From assembly GCA_051382335.1 (NCBI GenBank), contig JBBCAX010000444.1:1-11101 (forward strand): a stretch of DNA of 11,101 nucleotides, written 5' to 3'. Every line of letters begins with the position of its first letter. Positions within the stretch are counted from its first letter, which is position 1. The notes beneath the pieces are model-generated. The model did not search any database. It was not told the DNA's origin and saw nothing but the letters and a program-made list of their open reading frames with translations. Position numbers and translations under genes: made by a program. The stretch is from Deltaproteobacteria bacterium TL4. Its GTDB lineage: Bacteria; SAR324; NAC60-12. This document shows, piece by piece, positions 113 through 10,717 of this stretch.

Positions 113-1297
113 ATGAATCAAATGTTCAAAGTCCAGAAAATAATAAAACAAATTAATAAGTCAGAACCTCCATTCTTTAGTGCGGAAAACCTGGAAAACC
201 TCTGGTGTTTTCAGAGTAAAGAAGATAGCAAACTGCTTAAATTTGACTCCAGTATATTGTATTTAATTGATCATCCATCTGAAAACTTGGAAATTCATCA
301 AAGTTTAATAAATCTAGGATTAAAATTTGAAAAAATTGAATGGGTGGTTGCCGATCAAGGATTGCCAACAATCAATACTCAAATCGATAATCTAAAAAAA
401 GCAGATAATCTCGCTGCATTAGAATTGTTGCAACGAATAAAAGAAGGAAATAGACATGATTTTGTTAAGAATCACCTAAAGTTGCTTCCTATCATCGATT
501 TTTTATGTTCTCAGGAAAAAAAGAATCTGTCAGAAGATCTTCAACTGGCTTTTCTCGTTATTACCGCACAAAACAAAGAGAATCGAAGAAACCTTGGAAC
601 TATCTTTTTGAAGAATTCTCCGTTAAACGGTAAAGAATTAACCGTATGGAAGGGGCTATTTCAATCTTTCTTTGCGGAAGTTCATCCTTCTTGCTCAGAG
701 CCTTTACAGCGTTTGTTAAAACACAAACCTTCTCTTCAAAAATGTCTTCATTCTTCAGACTGTCTCTTGGAAATTTTACAATCTAATTCTTATTTGGAAC
801 CCCTTCATCGTGCTCGCTTTAAATTCTCAAAATCTTTTGAAAGGTTGCACCAAATAATTAATAGCAACTTGAAAACAGAAATTACTTCAGAAATAGAAAA
901 AACAGCCAAAATAATTTTGGAAGAAGCAGACCATCGATGGGAAGATTTGACGGACGCATTTCAACTTACAGTCCTCACATTACCGATTCACCGTACATCA
1001 GAGGGAACGTTTATTTCACTAACAGAAATGGAGGGGGACAACCAATCCACAATTGCTGAACGCTTCCAATTACAATCCAGCGATGATTTAAAAGATGCCC
1101 CTATCAGCCTTCCTGAACTCACTCTGCTGCATCCTGATCGGATGATCCGTAACTTTTATCGTGATCATCTAAAAATCACCGTAGAGGGTAGAGTTGAAGT
1201 ACTCAAATCATGTTTGAAACAAATTGGTAAAGATTCATCAAATAATAGTGAACTCTTAGAATATATTGCCAGTATAGTGAAGAACTGGAGAAACTGA
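113..1297 (+). CDS. Hypothetical helical protein (394 aa), probably the N-terminal part of the giant sacsin-like protein, separated by a -1 frameshift near 1252-1294
   Basis: Long ORF with ATG at 113 and an in-frame TGA at 92-94, so it cannot extend upstream. Contains LPIHRTSEGTFISL (980-1021), a motif type that recurs in the next ORF. The next ORF's frame is already open from 1252 and overlaps this ORF's end. Confidence 0.75.
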   Translation: MNQMFKVQKIIKQINKSEPPFFSAENLENLWCFQSKEDSKLLKFDSSILYLIDHPSENLEIHQSLINLGLKFEKIEWVVADQGLPTINTQIDNLKKADNLAALELLQRIKEGNRHDFVKNHLKLLPIIDFLCSQEKKNLSEDLQLAFLVITAQNKENRRNLGTIFLKNSPLNGKELTVWKGLFQSFFAEVHPSCSEPLQRLLKHKPSLQKCLHSSDCLLEILQSNSYLEPLHRARFKFSKSFERLHQIINSNLKTEITSEIEKTAKIILEEADHRWEDLTDAFQLTVLTLPIHRTSEGTFISLTEMEGDNQSTIAERFQLQSSDDLKDAPISLPELTLLHPDRMIRNFYRDHLKITVEGRVEVLKSCLKQIGKDSSNNSELLEYIASIVKNWRN

Positions 1298-1338: not shown

Positions 1339-4300
1339 TTGGTTTCACTACTTGGGGAAGCCAATCTGGTTTTTTGCATTGATGAACAATGGAGAAATCA
1401 AAAGGAATGTTATGACCTAAGGGAAATTGCAATCAATCTGAAAAAACAAGGATGGAAAAATGAAAATTTAAACCAAATGCTAGCGTGGTTGGTGTCGAAT
1501 AATCCTGTATTAACCTTGGATAAAAAATTGACTAAGTCGTTGGATCAGCTTGTTAAACTGAACAACTATGAATCCAACGATATTCCCAAATTGGTGATTA
1601 CAAGTGAAGTTGAAGAGTTTAGCCTTCATCAACGAGTCAAAATTTTGTCAGACAATGAAGCTTCCTGGCCTAGTGAGCCTATTGAAAGATCTGCAGCACT
1701 GGATCAGATTGACTGTCTTTCTTTCTCAGGAATGATTCCTCTATCTGAAGTAGAAATTGTACCATTATTAGAAATGAAGATGGGGCTGGAAATAGGAAAA
1801 GCTTTTTTTCCGAAATGTATTGATCTCAAGGGAGTTTCCAAACAATGGAAACTGGAAGATGATAAGGTTTCCAAGGTCTTAGGCCTCATGGATGTGAAAA
1901 CGTTATCAATTGAGGAAACTCAAGAGCGTATTTTAGACCAATTTGCTCAGGTTTGGGAACAGATCATCACACAAAAAAGATTATCTTTGCTCCGTTTCAT
2001 CAGTCAATGGGAACCGTCAGAAAAACTAACATCACTTCTACAGAATTTGGATGTGGTTTTGGTCAATTTCCCTGATCCAAATTGGGTGTTACCAAAAAAT
2101 ATAATTTCTCCCAAATGGTTTGAGAAAGGAGTTCCTCCAAATATTCCAGATTCCAATCTACCTGTGATTGAAAAGATAGATCCCAAAATAATTGATCTTT
2201 GGAATGAGTGCTGTTCACTGAAGACATTGGAAGAAGTGGTTTGTGAAACATTACATTGGACACAACAAGCACCCAATCCTTCAGTTGCTTGGAAGAAGCT
2301 CGTTGAATGGATTGATCTGATCACTTCAAAGGAGCAGGATACCCAAAAAGCTATTGACTCTCAAGATTTAGTGAATGCTCTTCAAAATAAAAAATGGGTA
2401 CTCACACGTAAAAACGTTGAATTGAGTTTTCAGAAACCTGAAAACGTGATTTTGCATAAAGGAGCAGAAATCCTATCAAGTCAATTTTCAATTGTTGCAG
2501 ATATTTTACCCAAAATAGTAACCAAAAATCCTGAAGAATTTGGCTTTCGAAACAAAATTTTACCTCAAGTTGAGAACATCGAGAAACTTGCTCACTGTCT
2601 AATGCAAAGCTGCAATGCTTCCTCTAATGGAGTTCTTAGTGTTTATGAACTGGTCTGTGATCTCATTGAAGATCGTCAGGATTTGGAAATTGCTTGGAGA
2701 AAATTTTCTGAACAAATGCCTGTGTTTCGATTGTTTCAGGAACCTGACATAGTAATGACTTCTAATGAACTATACCTAGGATCTGAAGACTGCCAGCAAA
2801 ATTTTGGTCACCTGCTCCTCTGTTTGAATGCAGGTAAAGATAAAAAGGGAGAGAATACAATTTCAAAAGCGAGAAAACTTTACCAGAAATTAGGAATTGA
2901 ATCCGATCCTTCTTTGATTCAAATTGTCATGGCATTATCAAAAATTGATGGAAGCGCCAAACAATGGGAAACAACCCATGAACAACTCGCAAATATACTG
3001 ACTCATAAGAAATTTACGAATCTTCCTGAAAGACTTGATCAAATCAGGGTGCTTACATGTTCGGGTGATTATCAACCAATAAAGAGTTGTTACCAGGACG
3101 AAGAGATAGGTTTACCAAACCTTCTTCAAACAGATAGCCAACCTTTCCTTATCCGAAAGTCCGACAATTCATCCAGCAAGATATTAAGATGGTTAAAAGA
3201 ACATTCACCACAACAAATTAATAATTTGAGAGATATCGCAAAAATGGAATTGTTGGGAAAGCCTTTAAAAATTCAAAATTCTTCAGCAATGCAAATTTTC
3301 AATCAATGGATGGATTGGTTTAAACAGTTGAAAAGAGAAGATTCAATAGTGAGTGAAAGACTTTGTGATTTAGGATATAATGTTCCAAGTCAAGAAATCC
3401 AAATAAGCGTAGTGGAAAAAATTGATATCCGGTTCGTTCTCCCAAACAATAATTTTGTTTACCCTTCGGATAAATGGAGAGGACCAGAAATTTATGCAAT
3501 TCCTGGTAATATTTTCATTAGACAAGACCTAATAGAATTCGATTACTTTAGTCAACCAGATCGTCTGGAAAAATTAGATGAAAAAATTGCAGAAGAATTA
3601 CTCCATATTTTTGAATCTTCTGACCAAGAACGTTCACCGGATCAAGTAGGTCTCTTTGGCTTTGTTAAAGAAACATTGGAGCGGCCAGGTGTTGTTATAA
3701 ATCGTCTACGGAAAGAGCGTGAAGACCGGTTTTTTTATCAATATCGTGACCAAGTTCCAGATCATGAATTCTTAAAACTGCATGAAGAATATGATCATAC
3801 TCGTTCTGGTACTGAAAAGCATGAGGAACTGAGATCCAAAATGTTCCAGATTACCAATCAAAATTTTGCATCGTCTCGTCGAGACCAGATTCGAAATTAT
3901 GGTTATGACGAGTATTCCGTTTTTGCCGAATTGGTTCAGAATGCTGAAGATGCATATTCCCAACGAGAAACGATTGGGTTAGAACCCCCTGAAGCAATAA
4001 GCATTACATTTCGATATGAACTGGATCAATCTGGGAAAAAGCTTATTGTTGAACACTTTGGGCGACCTTTCAACTGTTGGCGTCATGGCAATCTTGAAGT
4101 GGATCAGTTTAAACAGGATGTAGAAGGCGTACTCCGCTCTTCAGGAAGTTTTAAAACTCATGCAACTTCGTCAAATCGAGCCATCGGGCGTTTTGGACTC
4201 GGTTTTAAAAGTGTGTTCCTCTTGACAGATCAACCCACAATCCACTCGGCTCCATGGCACTTTACAATTGAAGCAGGTTGCCTTCCCAAGGAGATCTCTG

Positions 4301-6738
4301 CTCCAGATGATCTTCCCAAAGGAGCCACTCGAATCGTTTTGCCTCTACGTGAAAATGTCACTGAGCTTTCAGGTGATGATATTGCATCCCTACTTAATCT
4401 TTTGCCGTTTCTGAGGAAAATTAAGAACTTAAATTTTAAAGGGAATTGTAATCAATCGAATCTGATTATTAATACCAAGAATATTTATGAGAACGATGAA
4501 GGTTTTTTTGTTGAGGATATATTTATCAATGGATGCTCTCACAATAGAGGGGATAAAGTGAATTTTCTTCGGTGTTGTCATACGGAACATAATGGGCAAC
4601 TTGCGTTAAATCTTTCTCCCGAAGGACTTCCTGTTCCATGGGATGAAGCTTTTGATAGAGACTTTTTTGTTATATTACCTCTCAAAGCTAATTTGGGATG
4701 CGGTGTTGCAATATCTCATCTTTTTGAGATTCAATCTGGAAGAACCCATTTAATAGACCATTCGGACAATAATGATAGGATCAAGGACTTAGCTGACCTA
4801 GTTTCAGGATTTGCGGGAGCATTGAAATTTTTAACTATAAGAAATACTATTCAGAAAGTGTTAAACCACTTTTGGTCTTTATGGCGTTGGGACGGAGATT
4901 CAGAATGTTATGACATAAGAAAAGCTTTGGCTGAAAGTTTGGCAAAATTACCATACCATTCAGTTGTTATTCCAACCCTTGATGAAAATATTGCGGCTTC
5001 GTTTGAAAAGAAAATGATTTTCTATTTTTCTCAGAATATCCCCATAGCGTTTTCCAATAAACTTATTAAAGAAACTTTTATACTACTTGATAAAAAAAGA
5101 GAATACAGCCTATCTAATCGAGTAATTGTACCCTATGTTTTTGCCAAAAACTATTTGACAATATGTAAATTTGCAGATTATCCAGAACCAAACTCCTTGA
5201 TCAAAATTTCTTGGGAGAAAATTGGCGAAACTCTCTCCGGTTCCTCTTGGTTTGCTAAATGTCCAGAGTTACTGAATACTCTAGCAGAGGAGCTTTCACC
5301 ACAGCAGGAAGTCAATGTTTTAGGTTGGTTGTCAGAATGTCAAATTCTTGGTCGTGATGGACGAGATAAACCAGTCTACAAATTAGCCAAAGAATTGTTG
5401 ATTCCAAATTTTCCATACAAGGAACTACTACCAGTTCGTTTTCTTGAATGGTTGGATCCTTGCTACAATGATAAGACTACAAATTTGCTTCACGATTTAT
5501 TGAAACAGCCCTCTGTTGAGCATCTTCGTAAGATGTTAAAAAAAGAACTTATATTGAATGAGTGTGAAGACTTTTTGCAATATCTTTTGAAAGCCAAAAT
5601 CTACAGAATTGAAGAATATGACTCCCTCAAGGATGATTTACAAACCAAATGGATTCCTCATCATGGTGGATACATCAGTGTTGCTGAAGCTAAAACAAAG
5701 TCCAATTTTGATAATGATCTGTTTGATAATGTTGAGTTTTGTGCATGGCTTGGTCTTATTGATAAGACACCTGAACCTGAAGTCGATGAACGTGAAAAGT
5801 ATAAACATCCAGAATTTGATCCTACAACATGGTTGGAAAAACTTTATGACTGGTGGAATAATAATGAAAAAGCACAAATACAACTATACGAGAAACGGGT
5901 TTATCCATTAGGTCATCCGTTTAATTTGAAAACCGATTTTCGTTCAAAGGATAGAGAAGCCCGCAAGGAATGGCTCAGCTTATTTCTTCTCGGTTCTTTC
6001 CACACAATGGGACGTGTAAAACCAAGTCAGCACAAAGAATTTATTAATAAGTGTGAAAACAAAGGATGGTTGCAAGTTTTTGCAGAACCAGAATCTGATG
6101 CAAATGATTGGATGAAAATTTTGGACGAATACCTTGATAGTCAAATTGGAAATACATTTTACAATCAATGGGTCAAACAGTTTGTTAGCATTTATCAATT
6201 GGCTAAATGGTTAATAGATTATAGAGACTCTTTTTTAGAAATTGAAAAAAATCAAATGAATTTTTCAATAAATGAGATCACAATTTCTCGTGAAAATCCA
6301 ATACAACAAAGAGGGGGAATTAATGCACCACCGTTGACAAAGACACTTGGAATTGGAACGAATTTCATCATCAGAGAACTTCTTAGGAACAGAGTCATTG
6401 TCCAACCACTTGCCCATAGACACTGTTATGTTCCTGTCGGCCGAGTGAGAGATATTATGAGAGAACTAGGTTGCGATGGACTTGATGATGATCGTGGAGA
6501 AAAAGCTGATCGCTCTCAAATTATTCATAAATTTCTAGTTGGGCATCTTGGTGAGAATAGGGCAATATTTAATCATTCATTTGACCTTCCTTTATTGGCA
6601 GTAGCAGACGGGGATGCACCTAGATGGGATCTTCCCAGTTCTTTCCAAAACAATTACTCCAATAATTCACGAAACGGTGAAAACTGGGTAACTCTTTCTG
6701 ATGGTAGAAAAATACTAATTAAAAATTCTTATTACTAA
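1339..6738 (+). CDS. Giant sacsin-like protein with internal GHKL (HSP90/MutL/MORC-type) ATPase and S5-like module, degenerate repeats and a C-terminal HhH-like helical domain. Start uncertain (frame open from 1252)
   Basis: N-box ELVQNAEDA (3928-3954), HFGRPF (4054-4071), glycine loop GRFGLGFKSVF (4186-4218), GATRIVLPLR (4321-4350) and LPLKANLGCGVAISHLFEIQSGRTHL (4675-4752) follow the order of the sacsin/NOV-type GHKL-S5 signature. The TTG at 1339 has GAGG only 2 nt upstream, which is poor RBS spacing. Confidence 0.88.
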   Translation: MVSLLGEANLVFCIDEQWRNQKECYDLREIAINLKKQGWKNENLNQMLAWLVSNNPVLTLDKKLTKSLDQLVKLNNYESNDIPKLVITSEVEEFSLHQRVKILSDNEASWPSEPIERSAALDQIDCLSFSGMIPLSEVEIVPLLEMKMGLEIGKAFFPKCIDLKGVSKQWKLEDDKVSKVLGLMDVKTLSIEETQERILDQFAQVWEQIITQKRLSLLRFISQWEPSEKLTSLLQNLDVVLVNFPDPNWVLPKNIISPKWFEKGVPPNIPDSNLPVIEKIDPKIIDLWNECCSLKTLEEVVCETLHWTQQAPNPSVAWKKLVEWIDLITSKEQDTQKAIDSQDLVNALQNKKWVLTRKNVELSFQKPENVILHKGAEILSSQFSIVADILPKIVTKNPEEFGFRNKILPQVENIEKLAHCLMQSCNASSNGVLSVYELVCDLIEDRQDLEIAWRKFSEQMPVFRLFQEPDIVMTSNELYLGSEDCQQNFGHLLLCLNAGKDKKGENTISKARKLYQKLGIESDPSLIQIVMALSKIDGSAKQWETTHEQLANILTHKKFTNLPERLDQIRVLTCSGDYQPIKSCYQDEEIGLPNLLQTDSQPFLIRKSDNSSSKILRWLKEHSPQQINNLRDIAKMELLGKPLKIQNSSAMQIFNQWMDWFKQLKREDSIVSERLCDLGYNVPSQEIQISVVEKIDIRFVLPNNNFVYPSDKWRGPEIYAIPGNIFIRQDLIEFDYFSQPDRLEKLDEKIAEELLHIFESSDQERSPDQVGLFGFVKETLERPGVVINRLRKEREDRFFYQYRDQVPDHEFLKLHEEYDHTRSGTEKHEELRSKMFQITNQNFASSRRDQIRNYGYDEYSVFAELVQNAEDAYSQRETIGLEPPEAISITFRYELDQSGKKLIVEHFGRPFNCWRHGNLEVDQFKQDVEGVLRSSGSFKTHATSSNRAIGRFGLGFKSVFLLTDQPTIHSAPWHFTIEAGCLPKEISAPDDLPKGATRIVLPLRENVTELSGDDIASLLNLLPFLRKIKNLNFKGNCNQSNLIINTKNIYENDEGFFVEDIFINGCSHNRGDKVNFLRCCHTEHNGQLALNLSPEGLPVPWDEAFDRDFFVILPLKANLGCGVAISHLFEIQSGRTHLIDHSDNNDRIKDLADLVSGFAGALKFLTIRNTIQKVLNHFWSLWRWDGDSECYDIRKALAESLAKLPYHSVVIPTLDENIAASFEKKMIFYFSQNIPIAFSNKLIKETFILLDKKREYSLSNRVIVPYVFAKNYLTICKFADYPEPNSLIKISWEKIGETLSGSSWFAKCPELLNTLAEELSPQQEVNVLGWLSECQILGRDGRDKPVYKLAKELLIPNFPYKELLPVRFLEWLDPCYNDKTTNLLHDLLKQPSVEHLRKMLKKELILNECEDFLQYLLKAKIYRIEEYDSLKDDLQTKWIPHHGGYISVAEAKTKSNFDNDLFDNVEFCAWLGLIDKTPEPEVDEREKYKHPEFDPTTWLEKLYDWWNNNEKAQIQLYEKRVYPLGHPFNLKTDFRSKDREARKEWLSLFLLGSFHTMGRVKPSQHKEFINKCENKGWLQVFAEPESDANDWMKILDEYLDSQIGNTFYNQWVKQFVSIYQLAKWLIDYRDSFLEIEKNQMNFSINEITISRENPIQQRGGINAPPLTKTLGIGTNFIIRELLRNRVIVQPLAHRHCYVPVGRVRDIMRELGCDGLDDDRGEKADRSQIIHKFLVGHLGENRAIFNHSFDLPLLAVADGDAPRWDLPSSFQNNYSNNSRNGENWVTLSDGRKILIKNSYY

Positions 6739-6784
6739 CAGTAAAGATGATGAACATCCGAATTCAAAAATGGAGTCATTTCTG

Positions 6785-9520
6785 ATGACCACAGACATAA
6801 TTTATTCTCCAGGTGACCATGTCAACAGTGATGTTCATGGTACAGGAACCGTAATTGTTGACAATGGGCAGACAGTTATTGTCCAGTTCGAAGAAAGTAT
6901 CCATGGCTGTGAAAAGTCTACGTTAAACAGACGTATGACTCCACAGCAGGCCATTCACATGGCTGAGTGGCATCGTCCCCTTGAAGTGATAACCAAAATA
7001 CAAGCAGAAACAATCCAATCCATCAATGATGCTTGGGGAATATTTTCGCGGTCTCGCATATCACTCCTTCCTCATCAACTTTGGGTCTGCAGAAAGGTTC
7101 TTGAGATCTGGCCAGCAAGGTGGCTCATTGCCGATGATGTTGGTCTTGGGAAAACAGTTGAGGCTGGACTTATTCTATGGCCTCTTATCGCAAGAAATAA
7201 AGTAAAACGTCTACTGATTCTTTGCCCTGCATCTTTAGCCGAACAATGGCAAATTCGACTCAAGAGCATGTTTGATATCCGTATGACCAGATATACATCC
7301 AACGCAGATACAGAACGCTCTGACTACTGGAATATTCATGATCAAGTGATTGCTTCAATAGAGACACTTCGCAAAGACCATAAGGGAAGACATCGGAGGT
7401 TTCTTGAATGTGAGCCTTGGGATTTGATTATCGTTGATGAGGCTCATCACTTGAATGCGGACGAAAAGATGGTGCCGACTCTGGCTTTTCAGCTCGTGAA
7501 AGAAGTGGTAACTCAGAAGCGTGTCGCATCAATGATATTTCTAACAGGGACTCCTCATCGCGGGAAAAACTTTGGTTTTATCTCCCTTCTAAGCTTACTC
7601 AGGCCTGATCTTTTTGACACTCACTTGACATTGGGAGAACAATTGCCCCATCTCAGTCAAGTTATGATTCGGAATAATAAACAAAATGTTACAGATTTAA
7701 ACGGAAAACTCCTATTCAAAAAACCAATTGTTGACTCAGCGATTTATGCCTATTCTTCAGAGGAAGAGTATTTTTATAATCAGATGACCAACTTTATTGT
7801 GAGTGGTATGGCTTACGCATCATCTCTTTCATCAGCTGAGCAAAGTTCTGTGATATTGGTGTTGATTTCAATACAAAAATTGGCCTCTAGTTCTGTGGCG
7901 GCAATCAAACGTGCTATTAAAGGTCGACTAGCACGAATAGTAACAAGCAGGAGTCGTCTTACTAAAATGGAGCAGGACTATAATGGGTTACAAGAATATA
8001 GTGATGCCGCAAAATTTAACGATCAGGATCGTTTATGTCAGCTTGAAGAATCGATTTCTGAACTATTAGTTGAGCTTCGTTTGATGGAAGACGAAGAGCC
8101 ACGGCTCAAAGAACTTATGACTCTGGCTGAGAATGTCAAAGAAGAAACAAAAATTATTGAGATTATTAAAATTCTGGAAAGCAGATTTTCCGGAAGAAGT
8201 GTTTTGTTTTTCACAGAGTACAAGGCAACTCAATCTTTGCTCATGTCAGCCTTGATGAAAAATTATGGTGATCGCAGCGTAACTTTTATAAATGGGGAAA
8301 ACGAAGCTCGTGAAATTGTCGATAGTTCAGGTAATATTATCACACTCAGAGAAAATAGAGAATCCGCAGTTGAACGTTTCAACTTGGGTGAGGTTCGTTT
8401 TCTTGTTTCTACGGAAGCGGCAGGTGAAGGAATAGATTTGCAGGAAAATTGTTACTCGCTAATTCACGTGGATCTTCCCTGGAATCCTATGAGATTACAT
8501 CAACGGGTGGGTCGGTTGAATAGGCATGGCCAAAAAAAACGTGTTGAAGTTATTACCATTAGAAACCCTCAAACAGTGGAATCTCGGATTTGGGATAAAT
8601 TGAATGAAAAAATCGAAAACATTATGCAAGCAATGAAACATGCGATGGATGATCCCGACGATCTGTTTCAACTTGTTCTCGGCATGACATCTACCTCTTT
8701 TTTTAACGAAATTTTTTCAGAGGGAAGTAAAGTCTCGAAGGATAACTTTTCCGATTGGTTCAACGCAAAAACATCAGAATTTGGAGGAAAAAATATCATT
8801 AATACGGTGCAGGATCTGGTAGGGAATAGTGCTAAATTTGATTTCCAGACAGTTAGTTCTCAGATTCCTCGCGTTGATCTTGAAGACATGAAACCGTTTG
8901 TATTAAGTATGCTCTCTATTAACGGAAAGCGAGTTACTAAAGAAAATGATGTTAACGGAGAGGTGTTAATTACCTTTAAAACTCCTGAGAACTGGTGTAA
9001 TGAGCCTGGTGTTCGGAAAATTTATGAGGAAATGTGCTTCAACAGAAATTATAGAGGCAAAAATGCAACCCAAAGAATACTTGGTGTCGGGCACATGGTT
9101 GTGGATAAAGCAATTGCCCAGGCAAGATCAACATCCGCTTGTCTCATGACTACTGATGGAATCAAAAAACCACATTTTGTTTTTAGAATAACAGATAGAG
9201 TTACGGATACTGGTGGGGCTGTCAGAGCAGTGATTGCTACAGTTGTTGTTTCAAAAGATAGCGTGAATGATTTAGAACTTTTAAAGGATTGGCATCTTTT
9301 AACATTGCTCAACAGCTTGATTGGCCATGGAGGTATTAAAAAAGCTATGGTTTCATTACCCCCAGATAACGTGTTGGAAGTAGATAGTTCCGTTATCATT
9401 GCCTCCAGGTTTTTAGTGAACAGTATGACTGATCTAAAATTGTCATTTCGTGATCCAAAACCAGAATTGATGGCAATTATTTGGCCTGAAACAGTATTTG
9501 ACGGAAGTAAAGACGAGTAA
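6785..9520 (+). CDS. SNF2-family (RapA/HepA-, DrmD-like) SF2 helicase/translocase with N-terminal Tudor-like beta domain
   Basis: Q-motif LLPHQL, Walker A DDVGLGKT (7133-7156), Ia LILCPASLAEQW, II DEAH (7436-7447), III LTGTP, IV VLFFTEY, V STEAAGEGIDLQ, VI DLPWNP..QRVGRLNR (8501-8524). ATG 6785 is preferred to 6770 because GGAG (6772-6775) lies 9 nt upstream of it. Confidence 0.95.
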   Translation: MTTDIIYSPGDHVNSDVHGTGTVIVDNGQTVIVQFEESIHGCEKSTLNRRMTPQQAIHMAEWHRPLEVITKIQAETIQSINDAWGIFSRSRISLLPHQLWVCRKVLEIWPARWLIADDVGLGKTVEAGLILWPLIARNKVKRLLILCPASLAEQWQIRLKSMFDIRMTRYTSNADTERSDYWNIHDQVIASIETLRKDHKGRHRRFLECEPWDLIIVDEAHHLNADEKMVPTLAFQLVKEVVTQKRVASMIFLTGTPHRGKNFGFISLLSLLRPDLFDTHLTLGEQLPHLSQVMIRNNKQNVTDLNGKLLFKKPIVDSAIYAYSSEEEYFYNQMTNFIVSGMAYASSLSSAEQSSVILVLISIQKLASSSVAAIKRAIKGRLARIVTSRSRLTKMEQDYNGLQEYSDAAKFNDQDRLCQLEESISELLVELRLMEDEEPRLKELMTLAENVKEETKIIEIIKILESRFSGRSVLFFTEYKATQSLLMSALMKNYGDRSVTFINGENEAREIVDSSGNIITLRENRESAVERFNLGEVRFLVSTEAAGEGIDLQENCYSLIHVDLPWNPMRLHQRVGRLNRHGQKKRVEVITIRNPQTVESRIWDKLNEKIENIMQAMKHAMDDPDDLFQLVLGMTSTSFFNEIFSEGSKVSKDNFSDWFNAKTSEFGGKNIINTVQDLVGNSAKFDFQTVSSQIPRVDLEDMKPFVLSMLSINGKRVTKENDVNGEVLITFKTPENWCNEPGVRKIYEEMCFNRNYRGKNATQRILGVGHMVVDKAIAQARSTSACLMTTDGIKKPHFVFRITDRVTDTGGAVRAVIATVVVSKDSVNDLELLKDWHLLTLLNSLIGHGGIKKAMVSLPPDNVLEVDSSVIIASRFLVNSMTDLKLSFRDPKPELMAIIWPETVFDGSKDE

Positions 9521-9546: not shown

Positions 9547-10272
9547 ATGCAACGTAATGAGTGGAACCAGCAAGTTAAAGCTCTCGCTGAAGAGGCTGAT
9601 ATTGAAATAACACAAAATCAGTTAGATCAATATTACAAGGAAGACTTGAGTCCAGAAGGCGCATTAGTCAGGATGATTCAATTCTCTGGAAACAGTGAAG
9701 AACAAATAGTATCTACAGAAATCACTGCTGAGAATTTTAACCAGATTATGTCTGGGTTGGAAGAGGAGTTAAAACGATTCAATAACCATTTGACAATTAC
9801 AGTAGGAGGAAGTTTACCTCTTATTTTGCGGGATACCATTAGTCGTTCAGGATCAGAGGATATTGATGTGGCTAAAAGTTCAGTAACTCCTTCGGAAATT
9901 GAGAGGGTTATAAAAGCAGTACAAGAACAATTTCAAAAAGATAATTGGCTCGATTTTAGTTTTCGTGGTTTGTTTTCCAAAAGAGCGGCGAAGGTTTCAA
10001 CTGATACAGCCCTCTATGAATCGGAACATCTCGTTGTTCTTCCACTGGATCCCTATCAGATTCTAACTTTAAAATTGTTGATTCGTGAAGACAAGCGTAG
10101 AGCTAGAGATTATGGGGATATTCGTGATCTTTTAAAATATGTTCAGGAGAAAGATCATTTAGAGAGTCGTGGAGCTTTTCTGAGACAGTTGAAGCCCTAT
10201 TGCAAAAATGAGTATAAAGGATTACTGGATAAAAATCTCAGGGACATGTATAATAAGTACATTACCAAGTGA
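9547..10272 (+). CDS. Pol-beta-superfamily nucleotidyltransferase, DUF6036/AbiEii(MenT)-like putative toxin, with a ~55 aa N-terminal extension
   Basis: ITVGGS (GGS at 9805-9813), then SxDxD (SEDID, 9853-9867), then C-terminal K (10072) ... RxRDxxD (RARDYGD, ending 10119). This is the AbiEii/DUF6036 motif order. SD AAGGA lies 6 nt before the ATG. Confidence 0.8.
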   Translation: MQRNEWNQQVKALAEEADIEITQNQLDQYYKEDLSPEGALVRMIQFSGNSEEQIVSTEITAENFNQIMSGLEEELKRFNNHLTITVGGSLPLILRDTISRSGSEDIDVAKSSVTPSEIERVIKAVQEQFQKDNWLDFSFRGLFSKRAAKVSTDTALYESEHLVVLPLDPYQILTLKLLIREDKRRARDYGDIRDLLKYVQEKDHLESRGAFLRQLKPYCKNEYKGLLDKNLRDMYNKYITK

Positions 10273-10297
10273 GTATTTACATAGACAGAGCACGACA

Positions 10298-10717
10298 ATG
10301 GGAACCATTATTAAATCGACACCAATTGAAAATTGGACATTTGAAACATTCTTCCGAGAAGTATTACTGACTTATACCGCTCAGGATTTGGATTCGAATA
10401 AAGATGCTATGTTGACCAATTATGTGATGCGACTCTGGGATTCCAACTTTCTATTGAAAGATATTCCGTTTCTTAAGAATTTAAATGGTTGGGAACTCAA
10501 GATTGCTGCAGGGTTGGTTGAACAACTTGGCGAAATGTGGAAAGACAAAGGTCGAAACGAAATACTACCTTCATGGATATCTGAAGTTCCTCCCGTTGAA
10601 AACAGTGTGACTTTGATCCCGAATAGTTATCGACCTGATGTGAATGAATCCGGATATTCTAAGGTCCTATTAAAAAGGAATATTGTTGCCGTTGGAGGAA
10701 TGTTTGGATTTGCTTAG
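10298..10717 (+). CDS. Small partner protein (139 aa) of the nucleotidyltransferase, putative antitoxin
   Basis: IAAGLVEQL (10502-10528), LPSW (10565-10576) and KRNI (10673-10684) resemble the AAxxExLxxxxPxW...F.xRxI pattern I recall from proteins encoded next to DUF6036 genes. ATG 10298 is preferred because ATG 10208 would overlap the upstream gene by 65 nt. Confidence 0.65.
   Translation: MGTIIKSTPIENWTFETFFREVLLTYTAQDLDSNKDAMLTNYVMRLWDSNFLLKDIPFLKNLNGWELKIAAGLVEQLGEMWKDKGRNEILPSWISEVPPVENSVTLIPNSYRPDVNESGYSKVLLKRNIVAVGGMFGFA

Follow-up and report, generated by a model that had tools for sequence, protein, structure and literature searches.

The window analyzed here is an entire contig of 11,101 nucleotides (11.1 kb) from Deltaproteobacteria bacterium TL4; it carries two open reading frames (ORF1 and ORF2) that belong to a giant sacsin-like GHKL protein, the gene of an SNF2 helicase, and two small ORFs. 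Judging from structure models, the C-terminal domain of the giant protein, which is encoded by ORF2, very probably adopts the HhH-GPD fold of the EndoIII/Ogg-type DNA glycosylases, where HhH denotes a helix-hairpin-helix. By sequence, neither the canonical catalytic Lys nor the canonical Asp is present in any of 58 members of the family. We tentatively propose that the domain is an inactivated EndoIII/Ogg-like sensor of DNA or of modified bases, that it would serve at the same time as the C-terminal dimerization module of a Tiamat-like GHKL clamp equipped with a dedicated SNF2 translocase, and that this clamp may be able to dock onto the DISARM defense system.

An AlphaFold2 (AF2) model of residues 1475-1799 of ORF2 was built on 48 sequences (model 1; model residue + 1474 gives the protein residue). 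The model was all-helical, with a pLDDT of 87.3 and a pTM of 0.85, and contained an HhH (model helix 193-196, hairpin, helix 199-209) exactly at LTKT-LGIG-TNFIIRELLR. A replicate AF2 model of the Paludisphaera soli homologue, which is 42% identical, reached a pLDDT of 92.0 and a pTM of 0.92 and had the equivalent HhH at LGIG. Each model was compared exhaustively with 48,161 PDB chains by VIA-align. The top 22 rows obtained with model 1 all belonged to the HhH-GPD superfamily. The best match was Tm1821 Ogg, of the Ogg2 type (Z 11.2, root-mean-square deviation [rmsd] 3.8, 201/209 residues aligned), EndoIII scored Z 9.7 over 190/211 residues, QNG1/DUF2419 gave Z 9.2 and 8.8, and AGOG, MagIII, NTHL1, MUTYH/MutY, Mag1, OGG1, ROS1, and AlkA were among the further rows, with scores falling to Z 5.7. 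Among the unrelated rows the highest score was Z 5.2, and these aligned over about 80-100 residues only. When the replicate model was used, the top 24 rows were all HhH glycosylases; Tm1821 scored Z 11.4 (202/209) and EndoIII Z 10.1 (190/211, rmsd 3.4), and TAG (4.7) and MBD4 (4.5) ended the block. With both models the longest alignments, covering 226-233 residues at Z 8.1-9.6, were those with QNG1. Re-alignment of the 450 chains placed highest by Foldseek left 13 with Z≥5, every one of them QNG1, MutY, or OGG1, and the next chain stood at Z 3.9.

Both models have the two-lobed all-α organization of the superfamily, that is, a six-helix barrel carrying the HhH and a lobe of N- and C-terminal helices, and the Gly-hydrophobic-Gly hairpin of the LPG[VI]G type is present. 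We accept the fold because both match lists are coherent, cover 90-96% of the small targets, and are separated by a clear gap from the unrelated rows. An earlier reading of this DNA, made from the sequence alone, had proposed a likeness of the domain to HhH-GPD proteins; this proposal is supported by evidence that is structural only, since the HhH is modeled at the expected LGIG in both models and no unrelated fold displaces the superfamily from the head of either VIA-align list or from the chains with Z≥5.

At the sequence level, Pfam HhH-GPD matched 0/19 members at E≤10, no relevant match came from searching the domain against Pfam, NCBIfam, and PDB (phmmer), and a PDB profile search returned 0 matches at E≤10. 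Alignment by hhalign with the genome's own Nth, with an EndoIII-like protein, and, for 19- and 197-sequence query profiles, with a 16-sequence Nth alignment yielded probabilities of 0.1-0.6%. As a positive control, PF00730 found 3 genes in the same genome. The best hhalign match in two runs (probability 0.1-0.2%; window positions 6556-6609) paired F..FDLPLLAV with AFGEPTIAV(D) of Nth, the loop preceding the catalytic Asp; the match is probably due to chance, because its topological position does not fit. FDLP was also considered as the true GPD loop. This candidate was rejected because nearly all of EndoIII (190/211) already aligns within model residues 20-298, so that two further helices could not be accommodated beyond the FDLP helix.

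A word-indexed search with residues 1480-1799 provided the homologue set of 58 proteins, a number that counts the window's own protein, which is present twice (P0001/P0004); most of the proteins are 2,500-2,800 residues long and have a Pfam sacsin domain. W1506, W1545, G1558, W1611, P1664, L1670, G1673, F1676, R1679, E1680, and R1683 were conserved in 58/58, and V1698, F1748, D1749, and P1751 in 57/58. The hairpin L1670-G-[IML..]-G1673 was kept in 56-58/58, and the HTMGR loop was strictly conserved in homologues of the domain. The GIG, VP..RV, and FDLP motifs that the sequence-only reading had singled out are conserved in the alignment, far beyond chance, and the two acidic residues it pointed to, the E of RE and the D of FDLPL, correspond to E1680 and D1749 above. 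Its linker and three motifs translate exactly to the residues given in Table 1, and the span it had assigned to the domain (5824-6610) is nearly identical to the conserved block. Its description of the domain as Trp-rich holds only mildly, with 8 W in 263 residues (3.0%) versus 2.1% elsewhere in the protein, but four of these residues, W1505, W1506, W1545, and W1611, are each kept in 57-58/58.

Motifs were mapped with reference to the genome's own Nth, which reads LAGVGRKTANVVL...IAVDTHVLRV. The position of EndoIII Lys120, two residues after the hairpin Gly, is occupied by N1675 in the window protein and by C, N, or S in the family (47, 8, and 3 of the 58). The position of the catalytic Asp (Asp138) is P1699, where CYVP stands for IAVD of Nth, and is P, G, or A in the family (46, 10, and 2 of the 58); the position following it is never acidic in the 58 homologues. 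The remark of the sequence-only reading that the catalytic Lys and Asp are not evident is thus confirmed family-wide. A catalytic Lys is not defining for the monofunctional members of HhH-GPD. The canonical mechanism offers no explanation for the conservation of HTMGR, of R1679/E1680/R1683 in the second helix of the HhH, or of F1748/D1749.

The domain defines a large and conserved family that occurs exclusively at the C-terminal end of sacsin-like GHKL proteins. When 1.84 billion cluster representatives were searched with a profile, 964 clusters (defined at 50% identity) were found at E≤1e-3 and 693 at ≤1e-30, and among the 150 of the 964 cluster matches listed, the match almost always ended near the protein C-terminus. 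Candidate stand-alone or otherwise fused forms were discarded: the short matches proved to be fragmentary proteins on short contigs, and those of medium length keep the upstream GHKL. No internal second copy of the domain was found in the giant proteins and no relative in viral contigs, and the domain was absent from 87/87 other genomes of the same phylum. A scan of genome contigs with an alignment of the full-length giant protein picked up GHKL patterns and confirmed nothing. Neighbors in the ESM Atlas were unnamed or DUF3684/DUF8348 clusters only, with a low number of shared features (129-150).

GHL ATPases require a constitutive C-terminal dimerization element, and for this reason two copies of residues 1475-1799 were modeled together. 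The homodimer had an ipSAE of 0.53 (0.56, 0.53, and 0.53 in the individual runs), while the best of 3 controls reached 0.02; in calibration, the dimer mark was attained by 20/30 solved homo-pairs and by 1/23 single chains. The runs had at least 47% of contacts in common, and the partner pLDDT was at least 76. The predicted interface is symmetric and is formed by residues 1588-1603 and 1612-1623 (helices H5 and H6, which are not in minimal glycosylases) together with 1663-1668 just before the HhH (model residues 114-129, 138-149, and 189-194). The conserved F1615 and P1664 lie in this predicted interface, and W1591 lies in or adjoins it. The homodimer prediction therefore passes its controls; the model supports, but does not show, binding.

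An SNF2 orthologue (51-72% identity) was located immediately downstream of the giant gene in 10/10 loci, which come from Geobacteraceae, Anaerolineae, Planctomycetia, Paludisphaera, Nitrospira, two Verrucomicrobiota, Hydrogenedentota, Pirellulales, and Kuenenia. The SNF2 protein of the window is RapA/SNF2-like in comparison with the PDB. It matches PADLOC 'DrmD' (PDLC02634) over its full length with 1056 bits, every orthologue tested exceeded 1000 bits with the same model, and against NCBIfam DrmD the window helicase scores 290 bits, below the cut-off of 610. The full-length PADLOC match is what the pair shares with class 1 DISARM (DrmD, DrmMI, DrmA, DrmB, DrmC). In Paludisphaera soli, a complete class 1 DISARM (DrmD-DrmMI-(PD-DExK)-DrmA-DrmB-DrmC) lies immediately upstream of the pair, but the DISARM there has a separate DrmD. 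A DISARM core stood next to the pair in this 1 of the 10 fetched loci (L010/L048); DrmA, DrmB, and DrmC were found neither in the window nor, for the other loci, among the ORFs scanned in their 10-kb flanks, which were selected large ORFs only. DUF1998 occurs in the window's genome (its one match) and in two other host genomes on other contigs. The giant-SNF2 pair looks like a separable module and not like a core part of DISARM, because it is mostly without DrmA, DrmB, or DrmC nearby, its helicase falls below the cut-off, and the Paludisphaera DISARM has its own DrmD.

Pfam, PADLOC, and NCBIfam scans, together with an alignment of the SNF2 proteins, revealed no match to a nuclease family and no evident nuclease motif in either ORF of the giant protein, in its full-length homologues, or in the SNF2 helicase. 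Likewise, no nuclease family matched P0001, P0002, P0005, P0015, P0016, or P0030, in which the recognized partner domains were sacsin-type GHKL ATPases only.

Two defense systems invite comparison. Tiamat (Yuan et al., bioRxiv 2026, 10.64898/2026.09.30.754977) combines a single ATPase with a PD-(D/E)xK nuclease (DUF3883/NOV_C) at the C-terminus; its C-terminal part consists of a disordered linker, the nuclease domain, which is predicted to dimerize, and then short β-strands. The present family is like Tiamat in having a sacsin-type Hsp90-like ATPase (PF25794, with PADLOC TmtA matches) and a long uncharacterized middle region, in the order of its C-terminal elements (first a disordered linker, next a domain predicted to dimerize, and then β-strands; prediction only in both cases), and in frequent helicase neighbors, including Swi/Snf, and WYL regulators. 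Unlike Tiamat, it has two ATPase modules in 2,500-2,800 residues and an HhH-GPD-like end. The C-terminal PD-(D/E)xK nuclease (DUF3883/NOV_C) had no match in the present protein, and DUF3684 of Pfam had none in the window protein or in the full-length homologues scanned. The suggestion of the sequence-only reading that the domain sits where a DUF3883 nuclease usually is agrees with the Tiamat preprint (10.64898/2026.09.30.754977). The replacement effectors named there are helicases, HNH-like, Schlafen plus peptidase, S1, LOTUS, het-6, CDK, and J-HEPN; the word 'glycosylase' has 0 occurrences in the main text, and the supplements might list such a type (10.64898/2026.09.30.754977).

The END nucleases (Yee et al., bioRxiv 2025, PMC12191111) carry a catalytically inactive EndoIII/Ogg domain (iEndoIII) at the C-terminus of a PLD, a NucS-like PD-DExK, or a McrB-like GTPase, and this domain was proposed, with the backing of domain swaps, to be a sensor of hypermodified phage DNA. 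It offers a published precedent for one half of the functional suggestion made in the sequence-only reading, that the present domain may be a reader of modified phage DNA. Both domains have an EndoIII/Ogg-like fold (a predicted one in the present case) without catalytic residues, stand at the C-terminus of a defense protein, and are without a cognate methyltransferase. They differ in that iEndoIII is fused to a nuclease or GTPase, whereas the present domain is fused to a double GHKL ATPase without nuclease; in that HHpred finds EndoIII/Ogg in END, whereas no profile method detects HhH-GPD here; and in that the present domain has a helical insertion of ~70 residues with the predicted dimer interface, the two domains being likened by description only. 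In a full-text literature search, the term 'iEndoIII' was found only in the END preprint, and no paper emerged that links a bacterial sacsin or GHKL protein to a glycosylase, or DrmD to proteins of the GHKL, sacsin, or Hsp90-like kind. With the HhH-GPD glycosylases and QNG1/DUF2419, the domain shares a predicted two-lobed all-helical fold with the HhH at the matching place. In contrast to the glycosylases, it lacks the catalytic Asp and Lys, the Fe-S cluster motif, and a PF00730 match, has the extra helices H5-H7, and does not stand alone as a small repair enzyme but forms part of a multi-domain ATPase.

If the domain is an inactivated sensor, as we tentatively propose, two protomers would be joined at their C-terminal domains through the H5/H6 insertion, as predicted for the nuclease domain of Tiamat, and the N-terminal GHKL domains would close around DNA with ATP. 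Each HhH domain would grip the DNA backbone and probe bases in a conserved cleft (HTMGR, R1679/E1680/R1683, and F1748/D1749), in analogy to the inactive EndoIII sensor of the END nucleases as a reader of hypermodified phage DNA, and translocation would be supplied by the SNF2 motor. Several points weigh against this proposal. A sequence link to HhH-GPD is absent in every sequence or profile test. Neither model had a Foldseek match in the PDB at E≤1e-3 (best E 1.1 and 0.55), although the highest-TM rows were QNG1, MutY, and MjOgg despite the non-significant E. VIA-align itself carries the caution that helical models can score Z~13 by a common arrangement. The Lys and Asp positions were assigned by matching motifs and secondary structure with the Nth of this genome, not by three-dimensional superposition. 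A non-canonical active site could account equally well for the 12 invariant residues, E1680 and D1749 among them. The dimer contacts at 1663-1668, next to the HhH, might in the model occlude the canonical DNA face. Finally, the window copy of the giant gene, which is frameshifted and without its first ~590 residues, may be non-functional.

Among the alternatives, we regard it as unlikely that the domain is an active, non-canonical DNA glycosylase and the effector of the module, excising modified or unmodified bases by means of residues other than the classical Asp and Lys (E1680 and D1749 being the candidates) and leaving abasic sites that would block replication or be cut by host apurinic/apyrimidinic endonucleases. 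The predicted HhH glycosylase fold and the position of the domain in the C-terminal slot of the Tiamat effector nuclease argue for such an activity, as do the conservation of E1680 (58/58) and D1749 (57/58), the latter capping the N-terminus of a helix, and the lack of a recognized nuclease in either protein, which base excision would explain. TAG is an HhH glycosylase without a catalytic Asp, and glycosylase-based defense exists in the form of Brig1. However, all 58 members have Pro, Gly, or Ala at the Asp position and none has Lys at the Lys position, and the published defense precedent of this fold is an inactive sensor (PMC12191111). We give an even lower probability to an elaborate form of the effector idea, in which a nuclease-free module, composed of a double-GHKL clamp on an SNF2 motor and pluggable into DISARM as an extra arm, would strip bases from modified or foreign DNA by a re-wired HhH glycosylase with E1680/D1749 chemistry; if true, this would be the first ATP-gated, clamp-coupled DNA glycosylase immune effector.

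Equally doubtful is the view that the domain is solely a structural dimerization or scaffold module of the GHKL clamp, derived from or convergent with the glycosylase fold, which does no reading of nucleic acid. The homodimer prediction with its margin over the controls (0.53 versus 0.02 at best), the requirement of GHL ATPases for C-terminal dimerization, the same role predicted for the C-terminal domain of Tiamat, and the conserved W1591, F1615, and P1664 in or adjoining the predicted interface would all suit a scaffold, but the most strictly invariant residues (HTMGR, R1679, E1680, R1683, F1748, and D1749) are outside the confident interface, and an HhH hairpin kept in 58/58 would be superfluous for a pure scaffold. 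The least probable of the alternatives is that the likeness to HhH-GPD reflects a common helical arrangement and not homology, so that the domain would be a new fold variant of unrelated function, such as protein or small-molecule binding or a QNG1-like action on free nucleotides. Such a view would accommodate the uniformly negative sequence and profile tests, the non-significant Foldseek result, the Z of ~13 that helical models can reach by arrangement alone, the fact that the longest alignments (226-233 residues, Z 8.1-9.6) are with QNG1, which hydrolyzes nucleotides and is no DNA enzyme, and language-model neighbors (129-150 shared features) that are unnamed or DUF3684/DUF8348 and not glycosylases. 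It is difficult to reconcile with two independent wide searches whose top 22-24 rows are one superfamily and cover 90-96% of the small targets, with the clear gap to unrelated rows, which align ≤100-133 residues, and with an HhH motif at the topologically correct place.

These results provide a predicted fold and a testable role for a large domain family (964 clusters) that has no Pfam or NCBIfam match, and they define a conserved two-gene module of a giant double-GHKL protein and an SNF2 helicase, for which PADLOC-type tools would report just an orphan 'DrmD' and a weakly matching 'TmtA'. Should the domain be a sensor, as we propose, dead EndoIII/Ogg readers of hypermodified phage DNA would extend from small nucleases to ATP-driven clamps, and Tiamat-like proteins would be linked with DISARM; should it be a glycosylase, a new effector logic would emerge. 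Since the module is without a recognizable nuclease, its mode of stopping an invader is directly testable. The sequence-only reading had been silent on the predicted homodimerization, the obligate SNF2 partner, and the occasional adjacency to DISARM.

Table 1. Positions of the features in the window, with residue numbers of ORF2 unless stated otherwise
Feature	Nucleotides	Strand	Description
ORF1	113..1297	+	394 amino acids; homologue residues ~592-982 of intact 2,500-2,800-residue proteins
ORF2	1339..6738	+	1799 amino acids; C-terminal two thirds of the giant sacsin/Tiamat-like protein, corresponding to ~1000-2800 in homologues
Sacsin-type GHKL (Hsp90-like) ATP-binding domain	3892..4251	+	Residues 852-971 (ELVQNAEDA ... 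IGRFGLGFKSVF); PF25794, NF047352, TmtA
Pro/Glu-rich linker DKTPEPEVDEREKYKHPEFDP	5761..5823	+	Residues 1475-1495; predicted coil, pLDDT 57-70 over first 20 model residues
Conserved all-helical C-terminal domain	5809..6609 (approx.)	+	Residues ~1491-1757; predicted HhH-GPD (EndoIII/Ogg-like) fold
Helices H5-H6, family-specific insertion	6100..6207	+	Residues 1588-1603 and 1612-1623; predicted homodimer interface
Helix-hairpin-helix LTKT-LGIG-TNFIIRELLR (LTKTLGIGTNFIIRELLR)	6334..6387	+	Residues 1666-1683; from AF2 models and alignment
CYVPVGRVRDIMRELG loop and helix	6424..6471	+	Residues 1696-1711; site where HhH-GPD enzymes begin with the catalytic Asp, by motif and secondary-structure alignment
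FDLPL	6580..6594	+	Residues 1748-1752; the last core helix (model helix 276-282) has D1749 as its N-terminal cap
Extreme C-terminal tail motif WVTLSDGRKILI	6685..6720	+	Two short β-strands in the model, low confidence
SNF2-family translocase	6770..9520	+	916 amino acids; Pfam SNF2-rel_dom/Helicase_C; second gene of the module

The GHKL domain of ORF2 was matched by Pfam PF25794 (E 2.4e-9), by NCBIfam NF047352, and by PADLOC TmtA (E 2.2e-17 over residues 843-1157), and it is the second of two such domains that are present in the full-length homologues. In these, PF25794 reached E values down to 1e-53, and TmtA gave 2e-17 to 2.5e-32 (window protein included) with partial coverage only. At the other end of the protein, the tail motif could, by analogy with the strands after the Tiamat nuclease, be a docking or strand-swap peptide. 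Tails resembling it, namely GWRTLPDGRRIKLW and GDFVTLSDGRVIP, close a subset of the distant homologues.

ORF1 and ORF2 are collinear with a single uninterrupted gene in the homologues and are split here by a frameshift near nucleotides 1273-1285. Nucleotides 1-112 are AT-rich with stops in all frames, and the first ~590 residues of the giant protein, with its first GHKL domain, could be located nowhere in the assembly. Because of the frameshift, these stops, and the missing residues, the window copy of the gene may be damaged or mis-assembled. A second record, P0010 (1772 amino acids), begins at the same point as ORF2, and the gene split may therefore recur.

The SNF2 partner has a well conserved N-terminal region of ~70 residues (6770-7040; G.G.V...V.F pattern) and a C-terminal region of ~290 residues (8650-9520); neither region had a family match, and an alignment of 9 sequences revealed no evident nuclease motif in the C-terminal third. 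Beyond it, window positions 9547-10717 hold two overlapping ORFs: ORF4 (241 amino acids) gave weak nucleotidyltransferase matches, both below the cut-off (DUF6036, E 6e-4; AbiEii, E 0.03), and ORF5 (169 amino acids) had no family match. Neither was found beside the giant-SNF2 pair in the 10 other loci; the two ORFs are thus probably an unrelated small cassette, possibly toxin-antitoxin-like.

The flanks of the pair vary from locus to locus and look like defense islands or mobile elements. They contain a WYL-WCX regulator, an SspB-like DUF4007 protein, a Cas4-like protein, a serine recombinase, pAgo, McrBC, and DrmC, and further genes for a NERD-UvrD helicase, a prim-pol, an integrase, and an M78-HTH protein. 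The Paludisphaera soli locus (L048:3013-15300 and L010:1-13629) begins with the class 1 DISARM, which has its own DrmD and an inserted PD-DExK (PDC-S02) gene; a 221-residue ORF of no family comes next, followed by the giant gene and the second SNF2. In a Nitrospira metagenome-assembled genome, a long pAgo (PADLOC E 1e-276) is encoded upstream of the pair (L011:1-2559), and a 1720-residue protein with mad2/methyltransferase-like and SNF2 regions is encoded downstream on the other strand (L011:14081-19243). The window's own genome has a second large defense cluster on contig C184 (L052:745-14658), which encodes a DruE-like helicase of 1722 residues with DUF1998, a DpdE/DrmD-like SNF2 protein (950 residues), a DrmMI-like methyltransferase (1345 residues), and a DrmA-N-like protein (409 residues).

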